A stretch of 64,000 bases of DNA from Kiritimatiellia bacterium (GTDB taxonomy: Bacteria > Verrucomicrobiota > Kiritimatiellia > RFP12 > UBA1067), in contig JAZOQU010000022.1 of NCBI GenBank assembly GCA_045656225.1, positions 4,732 to 68,731 on the forward strand, in the 5' to 3' direction. Shown in pieces: positions 4,220-58,850 of this stretch. The translations under genes and the position numbers were made by a program. How positions within the stretch are numbered: the stretch's first letter is position 1; every line of letters begins with the position of its first letter. The notes beneath the pieces were generated by a model that made no database searches, was not told the origin of the DNA, and was given only the letters and a program-made list of their open reading frames with translations.

Positions 4220-4981
4220 TCACCCCAAGCGAAAGTCACCGGTTGCAACACCGAAATCTAACGCTGCGCGGATGACGCTGAGAGCGAAAATCGCGGCGGT
4301 TTCGGCACGCAAAATCTGCGAACCGAACGAGACGGGACGCGCTATTTCAAGAAGCGCCGAAAGCTCTTCCGGCGTAAAATCGCCTTCGGGACCGATGTAG
4401 ACGGCGTAATCGGCGTTCGGACTTTTAGCCTTGGCCGACATTACCTCTTCTAAAAGATGCTTAGGCGGCGGAGTCATAAGAGCGCCTATGAAACAGTTCG
4501 TTTTCTTAACCAGTTCAAGCGACTCTTTAAAATCGGCTATATCGGCAATCTCAGGGACAAAAACGGCATCGGACTGGCGCGCAGCCTCCTCGACGATGCG
4601 CATCCATCGTTCGCGCTTAACCGGGCGCTCTGCCGCATCCACGCGAACGATCGTTCTCGCCGAAATTACAGGGACTATTCTGTCGACACCGAGTTCAGTC
4701 GCTTTTTCAAGAGTCCAATCCCATCGCGAACCCTTTGTAACGCAGGCGAAAAGCGTAACCGACGATGAAGAGGCCTTGGCATGCCGCGTCAAATCTCCCG
4801 CCGCCTCAAGCTCACGCAAGGAGGCGTTGTAGCGATAAACGCGCGTTAAGCCCTTTCCATCAAAAAGTTCTACCTCCTCACCGTTCTTTGGACGCAGAAC
4901 CTTCAGATGATTCGCCGCCTCGCGCGAGAGGACCGGCGAATCACACTTAAGGGTTTCACTGTCAGCAAGAAGCCTGTGCAT
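4220..4981 (-). CDS. rsmE: 16S rRNA (uracil1498-N3)-methyltransferase RsmE family
   Basis: 253 aa with an RsmE-like PUA plus SPOUT layout (LFACVTKGSRWDWTLEKATELGVDRIVPV). Confidence 0.7.
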   Translation of the reverse strand: MHRLLADSETLKCDSPVLSREAANHLKVLRPKNGEEVELFDGKGLTRVYRYNASLRELEAAGDLTRHAKASSSSVTLFACVTKGSRWDWTLEKATELGVDRIVPVISARTIVRVDAAERPVKRERWMRIVEEAARQSDAVFVPEIADIADFKESLELVKKTNCFIGALMTPPPKHLLEEVMSAKAKSPNADYAVYIGPEGDFTPEELSALLEIARPVSFGSQILRAETAAIFALSVIRAALDFGVATGDFRLG

Positions 4982-4989
4982 CGGAAATC

Positions 4990-6159
4990 CTAAAGCCCCT
5001 TCTTCGCGTACTTAAGGCCGATCTCAAGCCCGCGTAATTCCGCAAGCCCGATAAGTCGGCCGCCGTAGCTGTAGCCGCAATAGCACTTACGCGACTTGTC
5101 GATCTCGAGAAACCGCCCGTGATCGGGACGCACGACGATCTTTTCGCCGCGACGCTTCTCTTCTTTAAGAAACGCTTCGAAGAGCGCGGGGATATCGGTC
5201 TGTCCGACAAGGTGGCACTGCGACTCGTGGAAAACCTTGTCGTCTGTATATTCGAGATTGCGGAAGTGGCAGAAGTAGACGCGCCTGCCGAACTTCTTCA
5301 TAATCTCGACCGCGTCGTTCGCCTTATCTCCGCCGAGAGAGCCCGTGCAGAGCGTAAGACCCACGTGCTTCGACGGGCACTTTTTATACATCTCGGCGAT
5401 ATCCCCGGCGTTTGAAAGAATACGCGGCAGTCCGAAAATCGGATGAGGCGGATCGTCGGGATGGATGCACATATTTACGCCCGTCTCCTCGAGTACCGGA
5501 GAAATTTCGTTCAGGAACCAATACATGTTCTCGCGCAGTTTCTTATCGTCGATACCGTCGTAAGTCTTTAGCTGGGCGAGAAATTCCCCAGGCGTCAGAT
5601 CGTCCACTGTGCCGGGCAGGCCGCACAGGACGGAATCCGCGACGCGCTTGCGGCCCTTAGCGTCGAGCTTCGCCCATACCTTCTTCGCCTTCGAGCGCGT
5701 TTTGGCGTCGTACTCTTTCTCCGCGCCGGGGCGCTTAAGATAAAACATATCGAACGCGGCAAGTTCGTACTCGTTGTATTCAAGACATGTCGAACCGTCG
5801 GGAAGCGCGTACTCGAGATTGGAGCGAGTCCAGTCGAGAACCGGCATAAAGTTGTAGCACACGGTCTTGATGCCGCACTTGGCGAGATTGCGAAGAGTCT
5901 GTTTATAATTGGCGACGTACTTGAGATAATCGCCCGTATGCTTCTTGATATCCTCGTGGATCGGCACCGACTCGACGACAGACCATACCATCCCCGCCTT
6001 TTTAACCTTGTCGGCACGGGACTTGATCTCCTTTACGGGCCACACCTCGCCCGGCTTGCGCTCGTAAAGCGCAGCGACCACGTCCGTCACGCCCGCCTGG
6101 CGAATCTCCTTAAGAGTTATCGAGTCGCCGTCACCGTACCATCTCCAGCCTTGTTTCAT
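4990..6159 (-). CDS. uxuA: Mannonate dehydratase
   Basis: Near-collinear with E. coli UxuA from the N-terminus (MKQGWRWYGDGD..., WSVVESVPIHEDIKKHTG, CYNFMPVLDWTR, HPDDPPHPIFGLPRI). Confidence 0.9.
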   Translation of the reverse strand: MKQGWRWYGDGDSITLKEIRQAGVTDVVAALYERKPGEVWPVKEIKSRADKVKKAGMVWSVVESVPIHEDIKKHTGDYLKYVANYKQTLRNLAKCGIKTVCYNFMPVLDWTRSNLEYALPDGSTCLEYNEYELAAFDMFYLKRPGAEKEYDAKTRSKAKKVWAKLDAKGRKRVADSVLCGLPGTVDDLTPGEFLAQLKTYDGIDDKKLRENMYWFLNEISPVLEETGVNMCIHPDDPPHPIFGLPRILSNAGDIAEMYKKCPSKHVGLTLCTGSLGGDKANDAVEIMKKFGRRVYFCHFRNLEYTDDKVFHESQCHLVGQTDIPALFEAFLKEEKRRGEKIVVRPDHGRFLEIDKSRKCYCGYSYGGRLIGLAELRGLEIGLKYAKKGL

Positions 6160-7597: not shown

Positions 7598-9288
7598 TAC
7601 TGCTCCTCAGTAACGCGCATGATTTCCTTGACGCTCGTAACTCCGCGAAAAGCCTTAGACCAGCCGTCTTCACGAAGCGTCTTCATGCCTTTGGCCATGG
7701 AACGGTTGCGGATCTCCGTCGCGTTTTCACGACGGACGATCGCTCCCTCTATGTCTTCATCGACCTCGAGCACCTCGAATAAAGCGCGACGCCCCTTATA
7801 TCCCGTTCGCGAACAGGAATCACACCCTATGGGCTCGAAAACCGTATTCTTTTCGGGCGCGTAATCAAGAGTGTAATACTTCATGTCGAGAGGGACTTCC
7901 TTCATACACTTCGGGCAAAGACGGCGGCATAGACGCTGCCCCATGACGCCGGCAACGGCCGAAGCGATCAGAAACGGCTCAACACCCATGTCGATCAGAC
8001 GCGGGAAAGCGCCTGCCGCATCATTGGTATGCAATGTCGAAAACACCATGTGACCCGTAAGCGATGCGTTAATCGCGATTTCAGCGGTCTCGCGGTCACG
8101 GATTTCACCGACCATGATGATATCGGGATCCTGACGCAGAAACGCTCTCAGTGCGCGCGCGAACGTCATACCGATATCGGCCTGCATCTGAACCTGATTG
8201 ATACCGGCCATATGATATTCGATCGGGTCCTCGGCAGTCATGATTCTCACGTCGATCTTATTGACTTCGTGAAGGAATGAATAAAGCGATGTCGATTTAC
8301 CGGAACCGGTCGGTCCGGTGACCAGGAAAATCCCGTTCGGACGGCGGATAATCCTGTCGACTACGGCAAAATCACGATCATTGAATCCAAGGTCGGCCAT
8401 CTTGACGAAACTGCCGCTCTTGGCGAGAAGACGCAGAGAAATCGACTCGCCGTACGCGGCAGGCATGGTTGAAACGCGGATATCGATATCCTGTCCCGAA
8501 ATTCTGATGCCGATACGACCGTCCATCGGCAGACGCTTCTCGGCGATATCGAGATTGGCCATAACCTTGATACGCGAAATGATCGCCGCCTTCAACCTGT
8601 TCAACTGCGGCGGGACGTCTACCTTGTGAAGCATACCGTCGATTCTATAACGTATCCGAAGTTCGGTTTCCTGAGGTTCGATATGAATATCGGTCGCGCC
8701 TTGACGGTCGGCTTCAACGATGATCTGGTTCACAAAACGGACGATCGACGCTTCCTCGCCCATTTCATTGACGTCGATCTTGGTCATCGTGCTGAATTCA
8801 TCGTCGACGGAATAGCGGTCGTCGTCGATCATTTTTTCAATCGCATCGGCACCGACACCGTAATATTTTTTGACGGCTTTCTCAACCTCGTCCTTGGTAC
8901 ATAGCACCATTTTCATCGGACAGTTGGCGACAAGCCTCAATGAATCCGCCGGAGTCGTATCAAAAGGATCTGAAACGACAATCGTCATCGACTGGCCGTC
9001 GTAACGGTACGGTAAAACATTGTATTGATAAACGGCACTGGCAGGCACTTTAGTCAAAGCGTCCGCTGTAGGTTGATTATGCTCAAGATCGACCACCTCA
9101 AGACCAAGCGCGGAACCGAACGCCCCAAGAACATCGATTTCGCGGTGACCGCCGAACTTGACAGCGGCTTCGCAAAGTCCCATTTCAGGATTCTCAGTCC
9201 TGCCGGAAATAATGCGGGAAATCTGCTCATCGGAAAAAATCCCGGCAGATTTAAGAACAATGTTCGTTAGAGACAAACTTTCACTCAT
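7597..9288 (-). CDS. gspE: GspE/PilB-family secretion ATPase (type II secretion / type IV pilus assembly)
   Basis: N-terminal T2SE_Nter-like domain, Walker A GPTGSGKST, and a tetracysteine CxxC...CxxC motif. The stop overlaps the rpoN start by 1 bp. Confidence 0.8.
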   Translation of the reverse strand: MSESLSLTNIVLKSAGIFSDEQISRIISGRTENPEMGLCEAAVKFGGHREIDVLGAFGSALGLEVVDLEHNQPTADALTKVPASAVYQYNVLPYRYDGQSMTIVVSDPFDTTPADSLRLVANCPMKMVLCTKDEVEKAVKKYYGVGADAIEKMIDDDRYSVDDEFSTMTKIDVNEMGEEASIVRFVNQIIVEADRQGATDIHIEPQETELRIRYRIDGMLHKVDVPPQLNRLKAAIISRIKVMANLDIAEKRLPMDGRIGIRISGQDIDIRVSTMPAAYGESISLRLLAKSGSFVKMADLGFNDRDFAVVDRIIRRPNGIFLVTGPTGSGKSTSLYSFLHEVNKIDVRIMTAEDPIEYHMAGINQVQMQADIGMTFARALRAFLRQDPDIIMVGEIRDRETAEIAINASLTGHMVFSTLHTNDAAGAFPRLIDMGVEPFLIASAVAGVMGQRLCRRLCPKCMKEVPLDMKYYTLDYAPEKNTVFEPIGCDSCSRTGYKGRRALFEVLEVDEDIEGAIVRRENATEIRNRSMAKGMKTLREDGWSKAFRGVTSVKEIMRVTEEQ

Positions 9289-43457: not shown

Positions 43458-43560
43458 CCTTATAGGAAAAATAAACTATGTTATCATACCACAACACGCC
43501 TTATAAGGTCAATTAGAAGCCCATCTTTATAACTGTAGCCACTAAGAATCCAAAATCATA
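43458..43560. repeat. Direct repeat copy 1 (~100 bp) carrying two CCTTATAAGG-type palindromes
   Basis: Aligns with 44499..44600. The core ccttataaggNcaattagaaNcccatcNttataaNtgtagccactaagaatccaaaatcata is near-identical in both copies. Confidence 0.8.
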
Positions 43561-43628: not shown

Positions 43629-44108
43629 CTACAGCCTCTCAACTGCAGCGAAAACTTTTGCCGCGAGAGAGTCTGATAGCTGCCACATACCGACATTGCC
43701 GCGGCATGGGATGGGTTCGGGTAAGCGCCTTACGTTCGAGAGGTCCCACCAGAACCGATAGCCTTCATCCCATTTCTGCTTTGGCGTTGGCTTGGACTTA
43801 TAGACACCATCCTCCAACACTAGATTTAAGCCATCCCGCGCCTTGTAGTCACAAACTGCAATAATCTTACCAGGCCAATCCTTAACCTCGCGCCAAGAAG
43901 GAAGCTTCTCAAAATCCTCGTCCGAAAGCTCATGCGCAGCCATCGCCATAAACATCCCATATTGCTCCTTGCAAAACGACTTCGAACACGAAATCGCCAC
44001 CCGCCCTTCCCTCGGCTCTGGCATCATACTGCGATTCTCCGTCCGCTTGATTCCGTAAAGAATCATAATCGCATACGATCCAGTACAAGTAAAGGCGTTC
44101 ATAATCAA
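43629..44108 (-). CDS. ASCH-domain protein
   Basis: ASCH signature GxKxxExR present as GIKRTENR. About 70% amino-acid identity to the N-terminal half of the ASCH–RadC fusion at 49492..50319. Confidence 0.6.
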   Translation of the reverse strand: MIMNAFTCTGSYAIMILYGIKRTENRSMMPEPREGRVAISCSKSFCKEQYGMFMAMAAHELSDEDFEKLPSWREVKDWPGKIIAVCDYKARDGLNLVLEDGVYKSKPTPKQKWDEGYRFWWDLSNVRRLPEPIPCRGNVGMWQLSDSLAAKVFAAVERL

Positions 44109-44171: not shown

Positions 44172-44492
44172 TCAGCAAGCTGCATAAGATCCCTTCTTAG
44201 TTTTACGCCCCGCCCTCTGCCGTTTCTTTTCAATATCTCTTCTCTTAAACAGTGATTCATCTATCTCAGGCGGTGCAATAGCCATAAGCCAATCCACCTT
44301 ACCGAGAGTACGGCAGTATGCAAGAAGCGAAAGAGTTGAAGAATTTTCCCCTAACTCAAGATTACGAATAGCCTTAAGCGACACGCCGCTCCTATCAGCA
44401 GCAGTTTGCTGTGATATATTAGCGGCAAGTCGCTGCGCCCTCAAGTTTTCACCCAGAACCTTGAGCATTTCTTCTTTTGTTCGATATATCAT
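44172..44492 (-). CDS. XRE-family helix-turn-helix transcriptional regulator
   Basis: Classic HTH_XRE: LRAQRLAANISQQTAADRSGVSLKAIRNLELGE. Immediately upstream of the ASCH gene. Confidence 0.6.
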   Translation of the reverse strand: MIYRTKEEMLKVLGENLRAQRLAANISQQTAADRSGVSLKAIRNLELGENSSTLSLLAYCRTLGKVDWLMAIAPPEIDESLFKRRDIEKKRQRAGRKTKKGSYAAC

Positions 44493-44498
44493 AAATCA

Positions 44499-44600
44499 TC
44501 TTATAAGGAAAATAAACAGCAATATTATAGCATAAGATTCCTTATAAGGCAATTAGAAACCCATCCTTATAATTGTAGCCACTAAGAATCCAAAATCATA
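44499..44600. repeat. Direct repeat copy 2 (~100 bp) carrying two CCTTATAAGG-type palindromes
   Basis: See copy 1. It lies directly upstream of the HTH gene start. Confidence 0.8.
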
Positions 44601-44848
44601 CAACTGCCCTGCGAGAGTTTTAAATTTCAACAAATCAAGCGTCGTTGTCCATAGTTTGCTTTCCTATGGCTTTAGCATAGACGACCTGGATGGATAGACG
44701 CTGAAATACTGTCTTGATTGCACATTAGAATTTTCCGCACAAGATTCTCATTTTCTCAAACGAAAGAAGATAACTCAAGATATTTGCCAGAAACACGAGA
44801 TTTTTGATTGCCTGCGCGGAGCTCGGCCCTAAGAAAGCACAAGATAAA

Positions 44849-44881
44849 AGTTGCAAAGTTGGTCAGACCTACTTTGCAACT
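44849..44881. repeat. 33-bp near-perfect palindrome AGTTGCAAAGT-tGGTCaGACCt-ACTTTGCAACT
   Basis: Inverted repeat read directly, with one mismatch pair. Homologous to the 45-bp palindrome at 45147..45191. Confidence 0.8.
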
Positions 44882-45146
44882 ATTATTACATCTAAGACTC
44901 CCATCACAACTTTGCCAATAGTGCAGCTGTACAATCTTACGATACGCTGTCCTTCGTGGAGAAGGCGAACTTGCGAATTGCGATTTTCGCTTTTTTGTGT
45001 TACACTACTCACCGTCTTAGGGAATTGGCCTTGCGACTTGTCGTATTGAGTCATCAAGCCCTGAGACATTTCTTTTGTTTCGGTTACATCGCAACAAACC
45101 TGACCATTTTCATTGTTTCACATTTAATCCGAGAATACAAATACGC

Positions 45147-45191
45147 ACCAAAAGTTGCAAAGTAGGTCTGACCTACTTTGCAACTTTTGGT
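45147..45191. repeat. 45-bp perfect palindrome (accaaaagttgcaaagtaggtc-t-gacctactttgcaacttttggt)
   Basis: 22-bp arms around a single central T, followed by TTATTT. Candidate bidirectional terminator, protein-binding site or MITE-like end. Confidence 0.8.
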
Positions 45192-45526
45192 TATTTCTTC
45201 GCTCCTCCGCATTTTGCGAAATCCGGCAAGCAAGGGATTGCGATAATCATTTACAAACAGGAAATTATCGGGATTTGCGCGACCGAAAAGCCCTCAGAGA
45301 TTGTGGATTGAGAAAGTTCGCAATCATACAATTACAATATCTTCTCAGCATTCGAAACAGAACTCTACCGCCGCATTTTGAGAAATGCGGCGGTAACTAC
45401 AGACAGCAGAATGCCGCGTAAATATGCCGCTGGACACAGTTTGCAAACTATGGATTAGCAGACGCTATTTAATAAGTCGGTGATGGTGGTGTCGAATGGC
45501 ATTGTAGCATACAATCATCTTTTAGT

Positions 45527-47533
45527 TCAATTGCCAAGCAGTCGCGAAAGCAGCGATCTTGACTTAAAGTCAATATCAAAGAAGTCTTTCGCCGCTGCCA
45601 AATCCATGATGACACTATCACGAGAACGTTTTGCACAAAGATTCTCCGGCAGCTCCTTCATCAATCGGTCAGCGTCCCAGTTTTCGCCAGCAACATATCG
45701 AAGTGTATTCATCCTCTTGTTTACTTCGAACGCATTGGGATTTGCTTGCCACGCCGTTTTAATTGTCTGTATGGCATATTTACCAGTGACCTTCTCACTG
45801 AAATAATCCTCCAAAGACAACTCCCGTATGAATGTAGGACAATTTGACAAATTTTCACTAAATATGGAACGCAAGATTACCGACGAAGCCTTAAGTATAT
45901 CTGGCGACTCTGATTCGGGGTTATCATCCTTGAGCGCCTCCATCAATTCAAGAACAGAATCAAGCATCCTACGAAGATACTCACGATAAAGCGCCGTTCC
46001 GATTTTTTGCTGAACAGATCGGACGATATTGCTTTTCATTACCTCCGTATTTGTAAGTCCAGCCTGAACGCGACAAATTACAGTTCGCCTTATAACTTCC
46101 TGTGCGACAGCCTTCACATCCTCATTTGCACTAATTACTACAGCGGGATAATTGAGAAGATGCTCAAGCGAACCGAAATCATCATTCTTAATCGTCTCAA
46201 TTGCGTGTTGATTAAACCTTGTATTAGTCAAATCGTCAACAATGATGGGCGCCCCTTGCACAGTACGTCGAAGCCCATCAATTGTCGTACGAGTAAACTC
46301 AGGCGCACTTATTTTCACCTTTTGTCCAATCATCATCTTAAGTAAGGTTTCCAGAAATGACGTCTTTCCAGCCTTAGACTGTCCATAGATGAGACCAAAC
46401 ACAGGATACGGAAGGGTTTTCTGATCATAACGCAAAGCTGTATCACGCATTACAGCCATAAAAGGCGAACAGAAGAACCAGTTCGCGAACTCGTAGTACC
46501 TATATTGCATCCCTTCGCAGTCACCATGGAATCTCTCAAAACCATTCATGTAACGAATAAAAAGTTCAACGTCAGATTTAATTTCATCTTGAGTAGGATG
46601 CAAATCAAGCGTAACACCATTAAGCAGCACACAACTCTTTTCAACATCAACGGCGAGCTGCGGATATTCACTCCTCAGTTCCTTCTCATGTTCGCTTTCC
46701 TTCACTTGCTGCCGTTTTACCTTCTGTATGACATCAGGCGTTACAAGAACTTTTCCTTTCCGCTTTTCTTCCTTTGAAATAGATATTGACGGCGCAATGC
46801 GTTTTGCCAAATTGCGAGTATCAAGAATAAAATTAACGTCCTCTTCCACATCCTTGACTGGCTCAATATAAATCGCCTTCTCAACCCTCGCAGTTTCAGC
46901 GATAGGTAATGCGTCTACATTCTCCGTGCTATCCGATATTTCAATAGCCTTTTTCGTTATAGTATCTACACTATCCTGTTTCAAATCCTCATAAGCCTCT
47001 TCAAACCGTTCGTATGCCTCCTGAGAATCAATATAACATATAATCTCTCTCTGTCGCCCGCCAAAAGCATTGAATGACATGTTTGCTGAACCGAATACAA
47101 CCCGAGCCCGTCCATCTTCCGCCTTGAGCAAATACAACTTTTCATGCGATAACCTTCTGCGCGCGACAAAAAGCCGCACATCACCACGCTCAACACGCGC
47201 AATCATCTTCTCCTTTGATGTAGAATCCGTCTTACGAATACGCTCCATTAACTTCGCCTGATAAGCCATTATCTCTTGAAGAGTATACGACATAACCTCT
47301 TCACATCCGAAAATAATTTCAGCGTCTTTGAACAAGTCAAGCAGTTGATATACAAAACCTATCCCCGATGAAAACGTAATTGCTTTGATTGAATTGAAAC
47401 CTGAAAAAAGTTCTTGCCACGTAATACTTTCTGAATAAACATAGTCCATCTTAACTACATCTATCTTGCTCATTCCACCATTTGACATCCCGTCAGATGA
47501 TGAAAATAAATCATCGCCAAAGTCTTTTGCCAT
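45527..47533 (-). CDS. Fused PLD-family nuclease and SF3-like P-loop NTPase (668 aa)
   Basis: N-terminal single HKD-type motif HEKLYLLKAEDGRARVVFGSANMS (HxK...D...GSxN). C-terminal Walker A GQSKAGKTS, Walker B IIVDDL, and a downstream VVISANE that resembles SF3-helicase motif C. Confidence 0.55.
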   Translation of the reverse strand: MAKDFGDDLFSSSDGMSNGGMSKIDVVKMDYVYSESITWQELFSGFNSIKAITFSSGIGFVYQLLDLFKDAEIIFGCEEVMSYTLQEIMAYQAKLMERIRKTDSTSKEKMIARVERGDVRLFVARRRLSHEKLYLLKAEDGRARVVFGSANMSFNAFGGRQREIICYIDSQEAYERFEEAYEDLKQDSVDTITKKAIEISDSTENVDALPIAETARVEKAIYIEPVKDVEEDVNFILDTRNLAKRIAPSISISKEEKRKGKVLVTPDVIQKVKRQQVKESEHEKELRSEYPQLAVDVEKSCVLLNGVTLDLHPTQDEIKSDVELFIRYMNGFERFHGDCEGMQYRYYEFANWFFCSPFMAVMRDTALRYDQKTLPYPVFGLIYGQSKAGKTSFLETLLKMMIGQKVKISAPEFTRTTIDGLRRTVQGAPIIVDDLTNTRFNQHAIETIKNDDFGSLEHLLNYPAVVISANEDVKAVAQEVIRRTVICRVQAGLTNTEVMKSNIVRSVQQKIGTALYREYLRRMLDSVLELMEALKDDNPESESPDILKASSVILRSIFSENLSNCPTFIRELSLEDYFSEKVTGKYAIQTIKTAWQANPNAFEVNKRMNTLRYVAGENWDADRLMKELPENLCAKRSRDSVIMDLAAAKDFFDIDFKSRSLLSRLLGN

Positions 47534-47662: not shown

Positions 47663-49465
47663 TCACAAAGCCTCATAATATTTCCTGATTTTTTCAGCCA
47701 TCATTTTACGACGCTTCGGCAAGAAGCACGTCTCAAAATCCTCAACACCCATCGTTATCACATCCTCTGGAACGCAATTCATTTCCATTGTCTGCTTCAC
47801 CATATCAATATCCGTCATTGATCCTATGACCGGACTCTTCGTTTCGCATTGCTTGAAAACACATCCGAAATACTCAGCGGGCGACTTTTTGCCGATTGCG
47901 ATGTTTATCGGAGTTTCTAAATAGGTGAAATTCGCCACCTGATTATACTGCGTAAACCGAAGCCCATTGTTCTTGAGGAATTCCTTCGGGAAAATATGGT
48001 GTACATCTCCATTATCAATAAGATTAGCAACCGCTGTTACCGAAAACAGGGACTGATCTCTAAAAAATACCTGTGCCGCCTTAAATACATTTAACGCAGG
48101 GCATTTAGCCGCCGACGTTTCCAGCTGTTGCACAATATTTACCGTCCAGAATGATTCCCCTAATTCTGCCGCTTCAATATCTGCAAGACACTTACGCACG
48201 CCTTTCTCTGCGATTGCGCGTAAATCTCGATCCATCTGAGATTCTGGAGACCCAGAATAACGCCCTGTCAATGTACTTAAGACGAACCACCTTCTGACAA
48301 ACGATTTAATTTCTGTAGCACCAACTTCTTTTGTCTCATTCAAGAGAAGATGCAATGTATAAGCGAAATCAAGCGACATTTGTGAGCGTAAGAGCTTAGA
48401 GGAAATAAACCCAGCCGACTCAATAGCCTCCACAAACTGCTTAAAATGATATTCCTTCACGAAGTTGTGAACACCAGACTCTAACTTGGCAAAGCTCTCC
48501 TGCATAATTTCGTCTTTAAAAGTACGATCCTTGAAATCACGTCCTGAAAGCAAACTGACAAGATCCTTCAATCTGCCGCGTCCGAACTTATGCATCATTG
48601 CCACTCGGAGCATATCACTATACTCAGGATCATAAATATCCTTGCGGTCATCCTTGAGCCATTTCATTTCGCCAGCATACGGCGTCGCCATAAACTCTAC
48701 ATCTTTCTCGACACTTGAATAGAACGCAGGATCAACCGCCAAATGACAAAAATAATCAATCGCCTTGCGCAAATCATTGCCTCCATAACGATTATCTGCC
48801 GCAATCTTCGACATTGCAAAATCAGCCTCATTAAGAATCTTACCTTGCGAATTTATGCGTACGAAAATCTCGGTAACCTCATCAATTCCAATATCCTGAC
48901 TAAGCTGAATTACGCCAATCTGACGCTGTTCAATGCGTAGCAACTCTCGAATCTTGGCATTTATCGCCTTGCGCTCCACGCCTAGGTTATCAGCAACATA
49001 CTGTTCTATAAATTCATAATCATCAAAATCCTTCTTAAAGAGAACGGAGATATCTGCAATCCAGCGCTTATCCTTTATATGAACCGGTGTCTGCACCTCA
49101 AAAGAAGGCTCTTCATCCGCCGCCCACGGATTAAATGCTATCTTGATCTGCTTAGATGAATAATCATCCCGCAAAACAGATCGCCCATCAATCGCCGTCA
49201 TAATAGCTGTGACGCGCTGCTGACCATCAATAAGAATCTTCTTCCCAAGCGACAACGATCCGTCCTTAAGCTTAACATCAGGATTTTGCCAGACAATAAT
49301 ATACCCTGCCGGATATCCACGATAAAGCGAATCTATCAAATCGCGGACCTGCGCACCGCTCCAAACAAACGGGCGCTGAATCTCCGGAATAGCAATCTCT
49401 CCATTCCTTACAAACCCAAGAATGTTCTCAATTGTCTTCTGCTCTATCGAATATTTCTCTGCCAT
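47663..49465 (-). CDS. GmrSD-family type IV restriction endonuclease (DUF262 plus DUF1524)
   Basis: N-terminal DUF262/ParB-like motif IPEIQRPFVWSGAQVRDLIDSLYRGYP. C-terminal DUF1524 His-Me finger motif DNGDVHHIFPKEF. 600 aa. Confidence 0.7.
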   Translation of the reverse strand: MAEKYSIEQKTIENILGFVRNGEIAIPEIQRPFVWSGAQVRDLIDSLYRGYPAGYIIVWQNPDVKLKDGSLSLGKKILIDGQQRVTAIMTAIDGRSVLRDDYSSKQIKIAFNPWAADEEPSFEVQTPVHIKDKRWIADISVLFKKDFDDYEFIEQYVADNLGVERKAINAKIRELLRIEQRQIGVIQLSQDIGIDEVTEIFVRINSQGKILNEADFAMSKIAADNRYGGNDLRKAIDYFCHLAVDPAFYSSVEKDVEFMATPYAGEMKWLKDDRKDIYDPEYSDMLRVAMMHKFGRGRLKDLVSLLSGRDFKDRTFKDEIMQESFAKLESGVHNFVKEYHFKQFVEAIESAGFISSKLLRSQMSLDFAYTLHLLLNETKEVGATEIKSFVRRWFVLSTLTGRYSGSPESQMDRDLRAIAEKGVRKCLADIEAAELGESFWTVNIVQQLETSAAKCPALNVFKAAQVFFRDQSLFSVTAVANLIDNGDVHHIFPKEFLKNNGLRFTQYNQVANFTYLETPINIAIGKKSPAEYFGCVFKQCETKSPVIGSMTDIDMVKQTMEMNCVPEDVITMGVEDFETCFLPKRRKMMAEKIRKYYEAL

Positions 49466-49491: not shown

Positions 49492-50319
49492 TTAAAGTTT
49501 GTCCATCACTGACACATACCCTCGCCCTTCATCGCAATCAGGCGAACCAAGGATGAGGTGGTCAAGAAACTTGATACCAAGCAGTTGGGCGGCGGATTGC
49601 AATGCTTTAGTAATCTGCAAATCAGCCCTGCTCGGCGTAGGATTGCCGCTTGGATGATTGTGAGCGACGATGATTGCATCTGCCTGCGCCTTGAACGCCG
49701 CACGAAAGACTTCTCCCAAGTCCACGGTTGTTGTGCCTTGCGTGTGTCCGAGAGATACAAGCACAGGCAAACCAATCGGGCGACACTCCGCGTCAATCGG
49801 CAACACAAAGAAACCTTCCTGCTCACCCGCAATCGGAATTGCCACACGAAACAGCGGATAGGCGTCATCTGCCGTCTCAATGCGCGAGTTCAAAGCACAT
49901 TCAGCCGCAGACACTTTTGCCGCAAGATCGGACGGCATCTGCCACATGCCGACGTTGCCGCGGCAGGGAATCGGTTCGGGTAAACGCACAACGTTCAACA
50001 AATCCCACCAATACGGATAACCCTCGCCCCAAGATTCGGCTTTCTGCCTTTGCCGCGCCTTGTAGTCGCACACGCCAACAATCTTGCCCGGCCAGTTCTT
50101 CACCTCGCGCCACGCGGGCAGTTTCTCGAAATCCTCTGGCGACAGGCTCACCGACGCCCACGCGATGAACTGCCCGTACTCTTCTTTGCAAAACGACTTC
50201 GAACACGAAATCGCCGCCCGCCCCTCGCACGGCTCCGGCCACGCGCTGCGGTTCTCCGTGCGCTTGATTCCGTAAAGAATCAATATCGCGTATGCTCCAG
50301 TGCATGTAAAGGCGTTCAT
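49492..50319 (-). CDS. ASCH domain fused to a RadC-like JAB/MPN domain
   Basis: N-terminal ASCH (GIKRTENR) paralogous to 43629..44108. C-terminal JAMM-type motif VAHNHPSGNPTPSRADLQIT typical of RadC. Confidence 0.7.
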   Translation of the reverse strand: MNAFTCTGAYAILILYGIKRTENRSAWPEPCEGRAAISCSKSFCKEEYGQFIAWASVSLSPEDFEKLPAWREVKNWPGKIVGVCDYKARQRQKAESWGEGYPYWWDLLNVVRLPEPIPCRGNVGMWQMPSDLAAKVSAAECALNSRIETADDAYPLFRVAIPIAGEQEGFFVLPIDAECRPIGLPVLVSLGHTQGTTTVDLGEVFRAAFKAQADAIIVAHNHPSGNPTPSRADLQITKALQSAAQLLGIKFLDHLILGSPDCDEGRGYVSVMDKL

Positions 50320-50606
50320 AACTTACTTTGTGAGACTGCCGCGAATAATGGCAAATCAGTTTCTGAATCAACAAGTTCTATATTCTCGTTGTTCTCTCCA
50401 TAGAACTCAAATTTATGCTCGCGGCGAGAAATGCAAACGCCGCGTTTTTTCAATTCAACTGCAAACCACCGCCGTAATGACTGCGGCGTTGCTGCGAATT
50501 CATCAATAGAATCGAAATCTTCCCAACCGACATTTCCGTCAGCATCAGAAAATGGCTTGATTTTTAAAAGTTCATAGGTCATATTGACAGGACTTTTCAT
50601 TGACAT
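50316..50606 (-). CDS. Hypothetical protein (96 aa), first gene of the ASCH–JAB/GmrSD operon
   Basis: ATGA overlap with the downstream ASCH–RadC gene. No recognisable motif. Confidence 0.4.
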   Translation of the reverse strand: MSMKSPVNMTYELLKIKPFSDADGNVGWEDFDSIDEFAATPQSLRRWFAVELKKRGVCISRREHKFEFYGENNENIELVDSETDLPLFAAVSQSKL

Positions 50607-50780: not shown

Positions 50781-51779
50781 TTATCCCTTGAAAACATATT
50801 GACGATGATATTCCATGTATTTCTCTCTTTCATCATCTAATGGAAGTGCTTGAATATACGAACCCGTCTTGATATTACATTTAGCTTGGTTTGTGGGAGA
50901 TATCCAATTGGAGACTAACATACACTTCTTTTCATCAAAGGAAATAAACCCCTGATCAAACAAACGGTCATAAAGCGGAGATAATATGAATCCGTTTTTA
51001 GGATCAAATGCTTCATCGTCTTCTGATACAGAATATGGTTTTATATGACTCGCAACCAATAGTCTTTCATCAGAAATCTTGGTTATTGGACAATAGGGAC
51101 ACTCTTCCAAAAGTTTATCTCGATATCTCTTTTGGGCAACCGCATCACGATTACTTGTTTTTACAGATGTTTGTATCTCTTTCTCCTGTTTAGCGGCATT
51201 GTTATCACTAACAGAAGCTGTACCTTTCCCATAAGTAAACACTTGTGGAGTTAGCCCTCTTTGTTTTAATGCATCGAAATCCACGAAAAGTTTCCAGTAA
51301 TAACGAATCATCCCTTTGGGATCAGATAATCTCATAATAGAGATATAACTTATCAATGGAAGAGAAAGGGTTCTAAAAAGCTTGTATGCAAGATCATTGG
51401 AATTGATATATCCACGAGGTCCCGCAATTTGTGTTTGGACATGTACTTTAAATTCAATAATATCAGGCATCTTCAACAACGACCGAACACGCTCTTCCCA
51501 CAATTCGGGCATTTTGGATTTGCCTGCATAATTTTGAGTGGGGAACTTGTATTCCTTCTCGGCTGTCTGCATGTATTTCAATAAATCACTTTTCAAGAAA
51601 AAGCAATCTATAGTAGACGCGCCAAGAACGAACGAATGTAAATCAGATTTTGATCCGAAGTAGAATTTAGCCTCTCCGTTCCCTGTACCAAGTTTATTAG
51701 GTCCAAGAACATTGCAATCTGGAACTGTCAGAATGCGTGAGACATCTTGAAATTTATAAGTCTTTCCATCAATTCTCAT
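50781..51779 (-). CDS. HNH_2-type (His-Me finger) endonuclease, putative restriction enzyme partner of the adjacent methyltransferase
   Basis: C-terminal CPYCPITKISDERLLVASHIKPYS...NGFILSPLYDRLFDQGFISF, an ASHIKP...N...H-type HNH_2 core. 4-bp overlap with the methyltransferase stop. Confidence 0.6.
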   Translation of the reverse strand: MRIDGKTYKFQDVSRILTVPDCNVLGPNKLGTGNGEAKFYFGSKSDLHSFVLGASTIDCFFLKSDLLKYMQTAEKEYKFPTQNYAGKSKMPELWEERVRSLLKMPDIIEFKVHVQTQIAGPRGYINSNDLAYKLFRTLSLPLISYISIMRLSDPKGMIRYYWKLFVDFDALKQRGLTPQVFTYGKGTASVSDNNAAKQEKEIQTSVKTSNRDAVAQKRYRDKLLEECPYCPITKISDERLLVASHIKPYSVSEDDEAFDPKNGFILSPLYDRLFDQGFISFDEKKCMLVSNWISPTNQAKCNIKTGSYIQALPLDDEREKYMEYHRQYVFKG

Positions 51780-53848
51780 TTCTCGACCTCCTCCTTAAAC
51801 AATTCGGGAATAACATTTTTGATAGAGTCAAGTATCGCAACAAGCACATCAACGACAATAGCATTTCCTGCTTGCTGATACATTGGAGTGTCCGGAACAA
51901 CAATTTTAAAAGTATCGCTAAATCCCATCAGCCTGAGACATTCTCTCGGCGCTAATTTTCTAATTCTACCTTCCCTAGTTATGTAATTATCAACACCAGC
52001 TCTGTGCATTTTATGCATAGAGGTTAACAAAGGTCTTGCTATCTCCAAGTCAGTTTTGGGTCGAGAATAAAAGGTTTTAGTTCCTGTAGAAAGAACGTAC
52101 TTTCTCACCTTTTCAGAGAGAAAATATTTTTCAAGTTCAGGCATTCCAAAGCTCTTGGCAGTCTCTTCATCAACGAAAACAAAATCTCCGTGCCAATTAA
52201 ATTGCTGATTCTTCTTTTGACATAGCTGAACCTTGCCGTCAACTTGTGTATACCGCTTTGTAAGATTTCCCTCATCAAGAACAAATCGAACACCTTTTTC
52301 TGGAAGATAGTATTTACCTGGAACGACATCAAGTAAATAATCTTGCATCGTCGTTTTTAGTTTCTTCGGTGCTGGAAATTTGAAGCTTCCACCGATTTTT
52401 AAATCCTTACGAAACCCAACAACAAAAACACGTTCCCTATTTTGTGGTATTCCATAATCCTTAGAATTTAACACTTGATAATGCCAGTCATAACCTAAAT
52501 CTGTAAAAATCTTTGAAATAGTAGCCCATGTTTTTCCACCATCATTACTCAACAGTGCACGAACATTTTCATATATGAAACATTTTGGCTTAATTTCTGA
52601 TACTAAACGAGCATACTCATAAAACAATGTGCCACGAGTATCAGATAATCCCATCTGCTTGCCTACAAGACTAAACGATTGGCATGGGCTTCCTCCAACA
52701 AAGAGATCGACTTCATTTTTGTATGGCGCCCCCTCAAGAAATGTAACATTCCAATGAAATCTATCATCTGTAACCGGGTAATTCGCCATATATGATTGGC
52801 GAACCTTATTTCGAGGAAGCATTGGTCGATAAAGCATATCGACTAACTTCTTTCTTTCTTGCCAATCCTTTTCCGATTCCCAACCAACTCTAAATTTGTA
52901 AAATCCAATTGCTTCATGAAGCATTTGAACGCGGTCTTTTAACTCACGCTCAGGTCGCTTACTCATAGCTGGCGCACCGTCTAACAATGCCTGAATATTA
53001 TTGCGCTGATTTACAATCAACTCATAGGCCTGTTGAAGGCTTTCGCTGTTTGGCTTTAACTCGTCAATGCGCTCGCATAATTCCTTAAACGCCGCCACAC
53101 ATTCAGACCATTCTTTAGCACCACAAACAAAAGGAGTTTGGTCGCCATTATCACAAGCAAAAACAATTTCATGAGCGACATGAGTACGCAACAATGCTTG
53201 TTCAATAGCTCCTATCCCGCTAAAAACTGTCGCTAGTCTTAATTTTTCGCCTTTGGCTGATAACGCTTGTGCAACAACAGGCATTAAGCCATCGAAGAAA
53301 TCCAACTGTACTGGATTAAACGTTGTAGCTGAATGCCATTTCTTGAAATATGGTTTTAGTTTGTCAAAGATGTACGGCATTGACTTTCCGCCAGTTTTGG
53401 GGTAGGGCTTAGCGTAAAATGCCGCGTCAATCTTTACATTAGGACAACGCTGTGACGAAACAAAAACGTCTGCCGCGGAATCAGAAAGTGTCGCGGCAAA
53501 AGAAACCTTCTCTCCAAGTTCATATAGCGCGTATGCTGAACCATGCGCTTTATCTGCCGCGGCAACTTTATAACCATTTTCTTTGAGCCACGCGGCATCT
53601 ACAACTTCACGAAACTTTGCTTCGTAAGCTAAAGGAGTAAATCCATCAGCGATTAGAACGATTCGTGATATATTTTCATGAAACGCAACTTTCCCACAAG
53701 GCGGCAATGGAAGATTATAGAACTTCTTCTCCTTAATCCATTCCGCATTTTCCTTGCGAAAAGTCCCAACAAGAACAGCTGTATTAGCTTTATTTTCCCT
53801 TTTCTTTCCCATCTTCAATTCACTTTCTTTATCGCTCATATCATCCAC
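51776..53848 (-). CDS. DNA (cytosine-5)-methyltransferase with a ~200-aa N-terminal extension and a ~100-aa insertion between motifs I and IV
   Basis: Motif I ATVFSGIGA, IV GGSPCQSFS, VI ENVRALL, VIII QNRERVF, IX RKLAPRECLRLMGF, X GNAIVV. The likely true start is MSDKESELK at 53839, with AGGTGG 5 nt upstream. Confidence 0.85.
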   Translation of the reverse strand: MDDMSDKESELKMGKKRENKANTAVLVGTFRKENAEWIKEKKFYNLPLPPCGKVAFHENISRIVLIADGFTPLAYEAKFREVVDAAWLKENGYKVAAADKAHGSAYALYELGEKVSFAATLSDSAADVFVSSQRCPNVKIDAAFYAKPYPKTGGKSMPYIFDKLKPYFKKWHSATTFNPVQLDFFDGLMPVVAQALSAKGEKLRLATVFSGIGAIEQALLRTHVAHEIVFACDNGDQTPFVCGAKEWSECVAAFKELCERIDELKPNSESLQQAYELIVNQRNNIQALLDGAPAMSKRPERELKDRVQMLHEAIGFYKFRVGWESEKDWQERKKLVDMLYRPMLPRNKVRQSYMANYPVTDDRFHWNVTFLEGAPYKNEVDLFVGGSPCQSFSLVGKQMGLSDTRGTLFYEYARLVSEIKPKCFIYENVRALLSNDGGKTWATISKIFTDLGYDWHYQVLNSKDYGIPQNRERVFVVGFRKDLKIGGSFKFPAPKKLKTTMQDYLLDVVPGKYYLPEKGVRFVLDEGNLTKRYTQVDGKVQLCQKKNQQFNWHGDFVFVDEETAKSFGMPELEKYFLSEKVRKYVLSTGTKTFYSRPKTDLEIARPLLTSMHKMHRAGVDNYITREGRIRKLAPRECLRLMGFSDTFKIVVPDTPMYQQAGNAIVVDVLVAILDSIKNVIPELFKEEVEK
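53802..53841. repeat. 40-bp perfect direct repeat (copy 1) covering the methyltransferase start codon
   Basis: tttctttcccatcttcaattcactttctttatcgctcata is identical to 54965..55004 and encodes MSDKESELKMGKK on the minus strand. Confidence 0.85.
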
Positions 53849-53866: not shown

Positions 53867-55003
53867 TCAGTCGCATTTCCCTTTCTCAGAAAGACGATTT
53901 CGTGCAGCCTCTATCGCCAAACGGAACTTCGCCTCCAGCACCTTCTTCGGCGGCAATTCCGTCATATATGACGCGACCCTTATATTGCTACGCCCCAACT
54001 CCAACAATTCAACATGTTCCTCGTTCTTCCCAGCGCACAAAATTAATCCGATTGGCTTGTTTTCACCTTTGCACATCTCATTCTTCTCAAGCCATTTCAA
54101 ATACAACTCCATCTGACCTTTGTACTCAGCTTTAAAAGTATCTATTTTGAGGTCGATAGCCACAAGCCTGCGAAGACGCCTGTGGAAAAACAATAAATCA
54201 AGATAATAATCTTCGTTGTCCACGCTGATACGCTTCTGTTCTGCAAGAAACGCCATATCACCACCAAGCTCAAGTATAGCGTTCCTCATGTCTGCAACAA
54301 GAGCCTTCTCAAGTTCCTTCTCCGAAAAATTGCCGCGCAGCCCAAGAAAATCTAAAACATACGGATCTCGAAAGGCAAGGTCGGCAGACATCTTGCCTTC
54401 TTCACGCAGTGCTTCCAAATCCTTTTTTATAACTGCCTTAGGCTTTTTTGCTATTGCTGTACGTTCATACATCATCGAAGCGATGCGTCCTTGCAATGTA
54501 CGCGTCCCCCAATGTTCCGTTGCGCACATTTCAAGGTAGAACTGCCTCTTAAGAGAATCTGAAATGTAAGAGAGCGTCTTGATGTGCGTCCACGACAATT
54601 GTCTCCGCAATGCGGAGAGAATCTCATCCTCGCCGAAAGTCTCCGCGGCGCGGAGACAATGCCTCAACGTCTTCTCATCCCATCCACCCCCATGAAAAAG
54701 CATAAGACGAGATGCCAACCCCTTGACAACCTTCTTACCATACTCAGCGCGACCGCAACCGAGAATTTCTCTATTAATGCAGTTGCCAACATTCCAATTC
54801 AATTTGGTCAACTCAGTATTAACTCCAACAGCCACGCGCTCCCTTGCCGCTGTTATCAATGATGATATTTCGTTGAAGAGCCTGGTAATCGCATCATCTA
54901 CAAAATTGACACCTGATGATGATTGTCCTAAAACATCATTTTTCTCTTTAACTTCAGAACTCTTTTTCTTTCCCATCTTCAATTCACTTTCTTTATCGCT
55001 CAT
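53867..55003 (-). CDS. YhcG/DUF1016-family PDDEXK nuclease-like protein
   Basis: YhcG-like N-terminal motifs (LSWTHIKTL) and a C-terminal PDDEXK-like core (VAIDLKIDTFKAEYKGQMELYLKWL). Start set to MSDKESELK (55003); the track's 55048 start crosses the upstream HTH gene. Confidence 0.6.
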   Translation of the reverse strand: MSDKESELKMGKKKSSEVKEKNDVLGQSSSGVNFVDDAITRLFNEISSLITAARERVAVGVNTELTKLNWNVGNCINREILGCGRAEYGKKVVKGLASRLMLFHGGGWDEKTLRHCLRAAETFGEDEILSALRRQLSWTHIKTLSYISDSLKRQFYLEMCATEHWGTRTLQGRIASMMYERTAIAKKPKAVIKKDLEALREEGKMSADLAFRDPYVLDFLGLRGNFSEKELEKALVADMRNAILELGGDMAFLAEQKRISVDNEDYYLDLLFFHRRLRRLVAIDLKIDTFKAEYKGQMELYLKWLEKNEMCKGENKPIGLILCAGKNEEHVELLELGRSNIRVASYMTELPPKKVLEAKFRLAIEAARNRLSEKGKCD

Positions 55004-55004
55004 A
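54965..55004. repeat. 40-bp perfect direct repeat (copy 2) covering the YhcG-like start codon
   Basis: See copy 1. Confidence 0.85.
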
Positions 55005-55013
55005 GTCTTCGCC

Positions 55014-55217
55014 TCATTCATGCACAACGTCCATAATATCGCCAACATTGCAATTTAGCACCTTGCATATTCTCGTCATCAGATCAAACGAGATATACTC
55101 ATCTTTAGATAACTTTGCAAAGGTAGACGAAGACGCGCCGACAGCTATTCGCAGATCTGTCCGCGTCATTTCTTTATCTATAAGAAGCTTCCACAATTTC
55201 TTATACGAAACACCCAT
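55014..55217 (-). CDS. Small HTH (XRE-like) DNA-binding protein, candidate R–M controller (C-protein-like)
   Basis: 67 aa from MGVSYKKLWKLLIDKEMTRTDLRIAVGASSSTFAKLSK. AGGAG RBS 7 nt upstream. Extended -10 element TGgTATAAT about 35 bp upstream. Confidence 0.55.
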   Translation of the reverse strand: MGVSYKKLWKLLIDKEMTRTDLRIAVGASSSTFAKLSKDEYISFDLMTRICKVLNCNVGDIMDVVHE

Positions 55218-55344
55218 ACCATCTCCTAATTGACGTGTAATATTATACCAAATCACATCCTAAACATACAAATATAACCTTTGACTTTTCAAAGGTGGAC
55301 AGATATGAAAAAACTGCATTTTATACCTTATTTCATACCCAAAC

Positions 55345-55400
55345 AGTGCGCATCTCTCACTTGAAAAGTGCGCACTTCTCGACCAAGAGGTGCACACTTC
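55345..55400. promoter_or_regulatory. Three direct repeats (a)GTGCGCAcTTC phased at 22 bp
   Basis: agtgcgcatctc at 55345, agtgcgcacttc at 55367, ggtgcacacttc at 55389. They lie between small ORF copy 1 and the HTH promoter. Confidence 0.6.
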
Positions 55401-55457
55401 TTTTCTTGGAGCTTACGACACCCCATCAACCGCTTTGCGCAATCGCCGCTTGTCGGA

Positions 55458-55619
55458 TTACGCTTTCAGCAGCGCAAGAATACCGCATAAAATGATTATC
55501 CCGAGAAACCACACAACACACTCGAGGCACGACTGCGTGCCGTCGCATGAATCATCCGGTCCGGAAGGCATCCTTAAGCCTCTCTCAAACTCCTCTTTAA
55601 ATTTTTCCCATCTAGTCAT
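55458..55619 (-). CDS. Small tail-anchored Cys-rich membrane protein (53 aa), copy 1; below the ORF-track size cutoff
   Basis: MTRWEKFKEEFERGLRMPSGPDDSCDGTQSCLECVVWFLGIIILCGILALLKA, with RBS AAGGTGA 4 nt upstream. Lies inside a ~180-bp repeat (55444..55627). Confidence 0.45.
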   Translation of the reverse strand: MTRWEKFKEEFERGLRMPSGPDDSCDGTQSCLECVVWFLGIIILCGILALLKA

Positions 55620-55758
55620 AATCACCTTTTATCATAAAATATAAACCACACCTACCCCAATCCTGTTAATCCTGTCAAAAAAACTTTATCCACAAATCTG
55701 CACATATCGACACAAATCAATTTGTGGAAATTTGTGACGATTTGTGGACTCCAACTCC

Positions 55759-58615: not shown

Positions 58616-58659
58616 ATCTTCTAATCTCCAAGCAACGAAAGTATCAGCCGCTTGTCGGA

Positions 58660-58821
58660 TTACGCTTTAAGCAGAGCAAGAACAACGCACAAAACGATTA
58701 TCCCGAGAAACCACACGACACACTCAATGCACGACTGCGGGCCGTCGCATGAATCATCCGGTCCGGAAGGCATCCTTAAGCCTCTGTCAAACTCCTCTTT
58801 AAATTTTTCCCATCTAGTCAT
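58660..58821 (-). CDS. Small tail-anchored Cys-rich membrane protein (53 aa), copy 2
   Basis: MTRWEKFKEEFDRGLRMPSGPDDSCDGPQSCIECVVWFLGIIVLCVVLALLKA, with RBS GGTGA. Lies inside repeat 58644..58827, 30 bp downstream of the GH gene stop. Confidence 0.45.
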   Translation of the reverse strand: MTRWEKFKEEFDRGLRMPSGPDDSCDGPQSCIECVVWFLGIIVLCVVLALLKA

Positions 58822-58850
58822 AATCACCATCGCTCCACACTTGCAGAAAT

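Follow-up and report, generated by a model that had tools for sequence, protein, structure and literature searches.

ASCH domains have been associated with restriction–modification (R-M) operons before, and RadC fusions with DNA-binding modules are likewise familiar. Canonical RadC (YicR/UPF0758), a protein whose distribution among bacteria is matched by few others that still lack an assigned activity, is a housekeeping or competence gene product that holds a helix-hairpin-helix (HhH) DNA-binding domain followed by a C-terminal JAB domain with an E…HxHPSG…D site. For bacterial TRIP4-like ASCH domains found in R-M operons, base or nucleic-acid recognition is the general prediction (PMC7641849), and the R-M contexts reported for ASCH domains of the TRIP4/ASC-1 and EOLA1 type involve adenine methylases, type I systems, and tRNA endoRNases. 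Both families meet in one protein of the 64,000-nt stretch analysed here (positions 4,732 to 68,731 of contig JAZOQU010000022.1, from a Kiritimatiellia bacterium; hereafter, the window), where a minus-strand gene at 49492–50319 encodes an ASCH–RadC fusion of 275 residues. Comparison with about 170 related loci from Kiritimatiellia and Lentisphaeria gut metagenomes (given L numbers) indicates that ASCH–RadC and an extra N-terminal domain of an upstream cytosine-5 (C5) methylase (the N-domain) very likely constitute a conserved frame, in which the cores of Type II R-M pairs are exchanged.

Despite its similarities with several described systems, this arrangement exhibits clear differences from all of them. 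The fusion shares with canonical RadC the C-terminal JAB domain (96 bits in Pfam) and its active site, but it holds ASCH instead of HhH and its gene belongs to R-M or toxin–antidote operons. Unlike the TRIP4/ASC-1 and EOLA1-type domains, its ASCH portion is missed by the Pfam ASCH model and is fused to RadC, and its context consists of Type II cytosine-5 R-M systems and DUF3990 pairs. As in VcaM4I (EVE–HNH), TagI (SRA–HNH), and MspJI, an N-terminal PUA fold precedes a hydrolase domain in a defence island; here, however, the hydrolase has a JAB fold rather than HNH or PD-(D/E)XK, and the gene belongs to a methylase operon and is linked to a tag on the methylase. C5 R-M systems of the Dcm–Vsr type also have a conserved, specificity-independent gene after the methylase and the endonuclease, but ASCH–RadC is not a Vsr homologue, co-occurs with Vsr, and also serves methylase-free cassettes. 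Conserved flanks, variable content, and repeated recombination are common to type I hsdS shufflons, domain movement in the specificity genes of type I and type III systems, and defence hotspots, whereas in the present case the whole Type II pair is exchanged, with a breakpoint inside the methylase gene after the N-domain, and no invertase or integrase was seen. MPND/MYSM1-like proteins (PMC4738411, PMC9963953) likewise combine a predicted modified-base reader with a JAB/MPN hydrolase, although their reader is a RAMA domain, their JAB belongs to another clade, and they are involved in chromatin deubiquitination; homology is not implied. A literature search found no paper on the ASCH–RadC fusion or on the frame formed with the N-domain, and three features seem not to have been described before: ASCH in the place of HhH, its link to a tagged antidote, and whole Type II pairs being exchanged between bookends.

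The ASCH–RadC frame and its cassettes

A genome scan with one genome per species yielded 79 ASCH loci, nearly all from metagenome-assembled genomes (MAGs) of Kiritimatiellia, Lentisphaeria, and Victivallales, often with several loci per genome. In-frame ASCH–RadC fusions are encoded in 31 of them, a separate RadC just upstream in about 6, and ASCH alone in 34. A C5 methylase was detected with the window proteins (tblastn) upstream of ASCH in 42 of the 79 loci and downstream in none. The genes are arranged in an array of methylase, variable gene, sometimes a small open reading frame (ORF), and ASCH–RadC, with junctions mostly from −49 to +30 nt and many 4-nt overlaps across more than 30 loci that hold unrelated restriction endonucleases. 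More than 12 endonuclease families occupy the variable position: MvaI/BcnI, EcoRII, EcoO109I, NgoBV, HpaII, NgoFVII, BsaWI, HNH_2, DUF4928, and BsobI were found in the genome loci, and the middle genes of an independent metagenome set belong to Bpu10I, DUF4928, EcoRII, BsaWI, HNH_2, EcoO109I, MvaI/BcnI, NgoMIV, BglII, NotI, and BsobI. The near-invariant partners of ASCH–RadC are, very likely, an upstream C5 methylase tagged with the N-domain and a restriction endonuclease.

In the window, every gene between 43 and 57 kb lies on the minus strand (GC content of 0.38–0.44; pflB adjoins). The C5 methylase (51776–53848, 690 residues; Pfam DNA_methylase PF00145, E = 2.3e-67) is followed by an HNH_2-type restriction endonuclease of 332 residues (50781–51779; Pfam HNH_2, 1.5e-10; PADLOC HNH, 2.4e-22, and REase_II, 7.7e-21), whose start overlaps the methylase stop by 4 nt. 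Judged by their domains and operon layout, these two genes probably form a Type II cytosine-5 R-M system, in which the methylase takes the part of the antidote and the endonuclease that of the toxin. The methylase itself is unusual in the approximately 178 residues (52686–53224) that separate motif I (FSGIGA, residue 209) from the PCQ motif (residue 387), a spacing far above the usual one and common to the methylase of L005.

Most of the frame methylases reach 500–690 residues owing to the N-domain, an extra N-terminal domain of about 200 residues that is homologous across loci (alignments A7 and A8). In the window methylase it spans 53252–53842, and a hidden Markov model (HMM) built from alignment A8 matches residues 16–132 (envelope 3–199; E = 3.4e-10). 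The window N-domain is 84% identical to that of L052, while their catalytic parts share just 36%. It has no sequence match in Pfam or the PDB, and is unrelated to the ASCH domain according to hhalign (probability 0.1). When 80 metagenome loci were retrieved by the N-domain alone, 29 of them extended at least 4.5 kb past the domain start; ASCH was found downstream in 28 of these, RadC in 25, and there was no locus with neither. Consistently, in the genome set the N-domain precedes 27 of 31 fused genes, compared to 6 of 26 ASCH-only genes (p = 1.9e-6). The linkage between the N-domain and ASCH–RadC is, very likely, near-obligate.

The two ends of the frame co-vary. Pairwise identities in 60 loci (1770 pairs) gave a Spearman rho of 0.54 between the N-domain and ASCH, but of 0.05 between the N-domain and the catalytic part of the methylase, and of 0.00 between ASCH and the catalytic part. 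Both ends are at least 70% identical in 70 pairs whose cores remain below 45%, and 27 pairs show the reverse. Since the N-domain and ASCH co-vary and the catalytic part tracks neither of them, the R-M cores are swapped within a conserved frame. Such mosaics are also apparent at the DNA level in L004/L080, L008/L083, and L065/L073. In the case of L046 and L047, the flanks are 95% identical, and L047 has an additional methylase and BsaWI pair of 2.8 kb, inserted after the upstream gene and precisely in front of the first codon of ASCH–RadC. It is therefore very likely that R-M cores are exchanged freely, with the N-domain and ASCH–RadC framing a cassette slot. Type II specificity would change in this way in a single step, through the joint replacement of methylase core and endonuclease, a type of change reported mostly in type I and type III systems.

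Second copies or fragments of ASCH, located 1–6 kb away in the same orientation, are present in the window and in L025, L027, L041, L050, L061, L065, L073, L080, and L176, the last of which also holds a second copy of the N-domain; such extra copies are as expected if cassettes stack or are exchanged through these sequences. Another recurrent arrangement involves the proteins of cluster c14 (327–331 residues, without any Pfam hit), encoded directly before ASCH–RadC in a single subfamily (L017, L025, L027, L041, and L175). The c14 gene is sometimes preceded only by a gene for a bare N-domain of 196 residues, which may represent the minimal form of the frame.

The cassettes are not restricted to R-M systems. 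Among the top 120 N-domain matches, 35 are fused to DUF3791, 30 to a C5 methylase, and one to an N6/N4 methylase; the in-frame partners of the N-domain come from four unrelated protein families, and its end is LRVCEAAVQ in every fusion. In L169–L172, L022, and L028, the order is N-domain–DUF3791, DUF3990, an ORF of 73 residues, other genes, and ASCH–RadC. DUF3990 is a toxin domain of the ADP-ribosyltransferase clan that is found as an Rhs toxin tip (PMC7955679, PMC4524185). The N-domain thus tags the protective protein of a toxin–antidote pair, irrespective of the type of pair, and ASCH–RadC closes the operon.

Domains of the ASCH–RadC protein

The 275-residue protein is a domain-swapped RadC, in which a TRIP4/EOLA-like ASCH domain takes the place of HhH and is followed by an intact JAB domain of the Zn type. 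The RadC JAB domain (PF04002; residues 148–259, 49543–49878) scores 96.3 bits against a cut-off of 22.1 (E = 1.6e-27), and the window protein holds HNHPSG within a full JAMM motif (E…HxHx10D), including the PSG serine, all of which are invariant or nearly so in the 31 fused orthologues. The models of canonical RadC, PRK00024 and TIGR00608 of NCBIfam, place the fusion below their cut-offs (92.2 vs. 180 bits and 85.6 vs. 133.85 bits, respectively), and its N-terminus is ASCH where canonical RadC has HhH (UPF0758_N).

The N-terminal portion (residues 1–145, 49885–50319) adopts a PUA-like beta-barrel fold with ASCH topology. Like the standalone copy located 6 kb away in the window, it carries GIKRTENR, an instance of the GxKxxExR signature that is present in 104 of 120 homologues, with K19, E22, and R24 conserved in at least 90%. 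These three residues are the counterparts of K21, E24, and R26 in the catalytic pocket of EOLA1 (bioRxiv 10.64898/2026.08.01.741249). Pfam ASCH (PF04266) matches neither window copy, even at E = 10, so that the assignment rests on fold and motif; a single distant relative from the metagenome set reaches this model at 8e-4. Pfam, NCBIfam, and PADLOC gave no match for the ASCH part, the standalone copy, or the small protein encoded just upstream of the fusion (p96, see below). The ASCH and RadC/JAB assignments made in the initial annotation of this DNA are upheld, as are its estimates of about 70% protein and 80% DNA identity between the two ASCH copies, which amount to 68% (2e-75) and 78%, respectively, with a 42-nt indel. 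The higher GC content that it noted for the fused copy also holds, with 0.58 for the ASCH part and 0.53 for the RadC part compared to 0.51 for the standalone gene; values for the p96, GmrSD, methylase, and HNH genes range from 0.37 to 0.43.

The ASCH family is small: a search of 1.84 billion proteins yielded 146 cluster representatives at E < 1e-10. None was found in the IMG/VR viral contigs scanned, and there is accordingly no sign of a phage origin.

Possible roles of ASCH–RadC

Whereas the architecture described above—domains, operon layout, link to the N-domain, core exchange, and optional GmrSD—is very likely, the function of ASCH–RadC can be proposed only tentatively. It may guard or regulate the toxin–antidote pair, rather than being a partner of GmrSD, a proposal whose probability falls somewhat short of even. 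Under this mechanism, ASCH–RadC would act independently of the DNA specificity of the cassette; the ASCH domain would bind a flipped or modified base, or another nucleic-acid signal, and the metal centre of JAB would hydrolyse its target, either nucleic acid or protein, jointly with the N-domain on the antidote protein. A more elaborate version, which is rather unlikely in its entirety, regards the N-domain as a handle on whichever antidote is installed, methylase or DUF3791, and ASCH–RadC as a sensor-hydrolase that clips or inactivates this antidote, frees the toxin, and causes abortive infection, with both ends doubling as recombination arms. If ASCH–RadC does regulate the antidote, restriction in these organisms would be wired to a sensor, blurring the boundary between restriction and abortive infection, and the more elaborate version would imply a new mode of regulating and diversifying restriction systems. 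The frame also offers an experimental handle on RadC, with a partner in the N-domain and defined cassettes; it is set in abundant, little-studied gut bacteria, and its narrow taxonomic range limits its interest.

On the downstream side, a GmrSD-family (DUF262) type IV-like nuclease of 600 residues (47663–49465; Pfam GmrSD_N, 7.4e-30) starts 26 nt past the fusion stop, in agreement with the adjacency noted in the initial annotation. It has no Pfam GmrSD_C match at E ≤ 0.01, while a DVHHIFPKE…N motif is visible, and relatives in L084 carry GmrSD_C. An HMM trained on the GmrSD-like members of these loci placed such genes within 4.5 kb downstream in 15 of the 54 fused loci with enough flanking DNA (about 12 of them non-redundant). 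In 9 loci, one of which is the window, they directly adjoin the fusion (−13 to +31 nt). They vary from 410 to 669 residues in length and belong to several subtypes of low mutual identity (26% between the window and L020 copies); by tblastn, the window GmrSD matched only one of the 79 genome loci. GmrSD_N is the most frequent downstream family (3 of 75 and 5 of 42 downstream proteins), next to NERD, DUF4268, KAP, AbiH, PIN, DUF2971, a PLD-type protein, and ordinary housekeeping genes. GmrSD is not a defining member, because most fused loci have other downstream genes, but a recurrent, optional occupant of a second, looser slot for single-gene defences. Hence, the expected proximity of ASCH to type IV nucleases recurs without being obligatory, and the constant partners of the fusion are the methylase and the endonuclease upstream and not GmrSD.

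The small protein p96 is encoded by an ORF of 96 residues (50316–50606) whose stop overlaps the start of ASCH–RadC as ATGA, the coupling already proposed for it. To judge from the starts of its homologues, translation most likely begins at the ninth codon, giving a protein of 88 residues (50316–50582). Its family comprises 12 homologues, and its position is occupied elsewhere by unrelated small proteins or by none. In L080, a p96–ASCH–RadC unit is 83% identical to the window at the DNA level, with homology from the p96 start codon to near the RadC stop, flanked upstream by a different methylase and an HpaII-type enzyme, and downstream by DUF2971 without GmrSD; p96 and ASCH–RadC thus travel as one unit.

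These distributions bear directly on the three-gene module of the initial annotation, in which p96, ASCH–JAB, and GmrSD form a type IV system that senses modification, with ASCH reading a modified base for GmrSD. The position of GmrSD-like genes as the commonest downstream neighbours, and the occurrence of independent subtypes at the same place, which argues for more than one capture event, are in its favour; however, about three quarters of the fused loci lack GmrSD within 4.5 kb, p96 is confined to its 12 homologues and forms with ASCH–RadC a unit that occurs without GmrSD, and GmrSD enzymes are known to work as single proteins. The module is therefore not conserved as a unit, and this role is very unlikely. 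A function in 5-methylcytosine (m5C) maintenance, by analogy with Vsr, would have ASCH flip m5C, its deamination product, or an adduct base, and RadC nick the DNA or clear the adduct. The frame methylases are almost all of the C5 type (19 and 10 Pfam matches, compared to one N6_N4), canonical RadC carries an HhH partner of the DNA-repair type (PMC3239186), and Vsr homologues were identified at the same operon position in four loci, their lack elsewhere being weak evidence. They are encoded in L052 (9501–9989, overlapping the ASCH start), L056 (5452–5994, directly following a RadC-only gene), L075 (928–1365), and L080 (6100–6506, frameshifted, just before the second ASCH copy). A non-homologous displacement of Vsr by RadC was considered and dropped, as both stand side by side in the L056 operon and hence are not interchangeable, and Vsr also co-occurs with ASCH. 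A purely m5C-specific role is further disfavoured because the same frame holds the methylase-free DUF3791/DUF3990 pairs of L169–L172, and ASCH–RadC is present in L046 without any cassette; the maintenance function is thus considered unlikely. Still more doubtful is a modification-dependent, type IV-like nuclease akin to EVE–HNH and SRA–HNH enzymes, which would act on phages that evade the Type II enzyme through their modified cytosines; the C-terminal part of the fusion has the RadC JAB fold and matches no nuclease family in Pfam, NCBIfam, or PADLOC.

Finally, ASCH–RadC and the N-domain may have no functional tie to the cassettes, being merely resident markers of a hotspot where cassettes were gathered by homologous recombination. 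The empty and filled sites of L046 and L047, the tandem copies or fragments of ASCH or the N-domain in many loci, and the housekeeping genes that directly flank many of them are in line with this explanation, and the host-like GC content of ASCH–RadC amid AT-rich neighbours would also fit a resident gene at an insertion hotspot. Less easily accommodated are the in-frame fusions of the N-domain to four unrelated families with a constant end, the recurrent translational coupling to unrelated upstream genes, and a protein conservation beyond the needs of DNA homology arms (median ASCH identity of 60%, with DNA identity often undetectable), which leaves the hotspot explanation improbable. The role of ASCH–RadC as guard or regulator is itself weakened by several observations besides its GC content. 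The co-variation of the N-domain and ASCH could reflect the shared vertical descent of two residents instead of a physical interaction, four fused loci lack an upstream N-domain, ASCH–RadC adjoins housekeeping genes in L046, and around 40% of the family is ASCH-only, mostly without N-domain, indicating that ASCH needs neither RadC nor the tag to work. No RadC-type JAB domain has a demonstrated biochemical activity (PMC3239186, PMC5512222, PMC11981726), and for ASCH domains, roles as readers, RNases, or amidohydrolases are all conceivable, so that the mechanism is deduced from context. The N-domain has also been found without ASCH–RadC nearby, in L174. This protein (5001–6158), the sole clear exception to the link, is a chimera of the N-domain, a partial DUF3791, and the C-terminus of a SpoIIE phosphatase, encoded among housekeeping genes.

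Other genes and repeats of the window

The standalone ASCH paralogue (43629–44102, about 157 residues from its ATG), recognized by its similarity to the fused copy, is preceded by an XRE/HipB-like HTH gene (44172–44492; Pfam HTH_3) and followed, in the direction of transcription, by a lipoprotein gene and pflB. The window DNA is 91–97% identical to the MAG contigs L010 and L011, an identity that assigns it to Kiritimatiellia living in animal guts. The standalone ASCH is 95% identical in DNA to that of L011, where the order is C5 methylase, canonical HhH–RadC (249 residues), and a separate ASCH gene. L011 is thus an unfused version of the RadC and ASCH pair, and the standalone gene of the window is of the subtype located in other loci behind a RadC gene of its own. 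The genes of L010 run from XRE through a HipA kinase (427 residues; Pfam HipA_C, 4.4e-42) and ASCH to the lipoprotein, and its XRE protein is 97% identical to that of the window. The window lacks positions 8776–9911 of L010, a 1.14-kb deletion that takes out hipA, leaving an incomplete HipBA pair with the HTH gene and no HipA gene. Because L010 retains hipA between XRE and ASCH, the XRE gene is the HipB remnant of a hipBA pair and not a partner of ASCH. The pairing of both genes in the initial annotation is consequently an artefact of the deletion, and a regulatory role of XRE on ASCH was discarded; the modular shuffling that this pairing was meant to illustrate stands in a broad sense. A 51-nt direct repeat (94% identical; 43510–43560 and 44550–44600) flanks the unit formed by the HipB remnant and the standalone ASCH. 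In the comparison with L010, its downstream copy grows to some 117 nt and corresponds to DNA upstream of hipB.

Between this unit and GmrSD lies the gene for the PLD-type protein (45527–47533), of 668 residues with an NgoFVII-like N-terminal domain (Pfam RE_NgoFVII, 3.1e-9; PLDc_2, 8.2e-6) and weak P-loop-like matches. Its homologues, 71–88% identical, are encoded a few kb downstream of ASCH–RadC in L005, L008, and L036. A non-coding gap of 1 kb separates this gene from the XRE gene. In it, a palindrome of about 40 nt with 20-bp stems occurs twice (44846–44884 and 45147–45191), along with a further GC-rich hairpin (45365–45396); these elements could be terminators or a REP-like repeat. In a promoter and terminator scan, strong terminator-like hairpins were found only past the PLD gene, the results being otherwise near the shuffled expectation. 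A megablast comparison of the island with E. coli genomes gave no match.

At the opposite end, the first gene in the order of transcription encodes a YhcG/DUF1016 nuclease-like protein (53867–55048). An exact 41-nt direct repeat (53800–53840 and 54964–55004) makes this gene and the C5 methylase begin with 13 identical codons (MSDKESELKMGKK), and resembles a scar that recombination or insertion has left at the cassette's 5′ end. Further upstream, the intergenic block at 55017–55675 is 94% identical to positions 1001–1658 of L011, a Kiritimatiellia MAG contig, and a non-coding dispersed repeat of 182 nt occurs at 55445–55626 and 58647–58828, with 94% identity between both copies.

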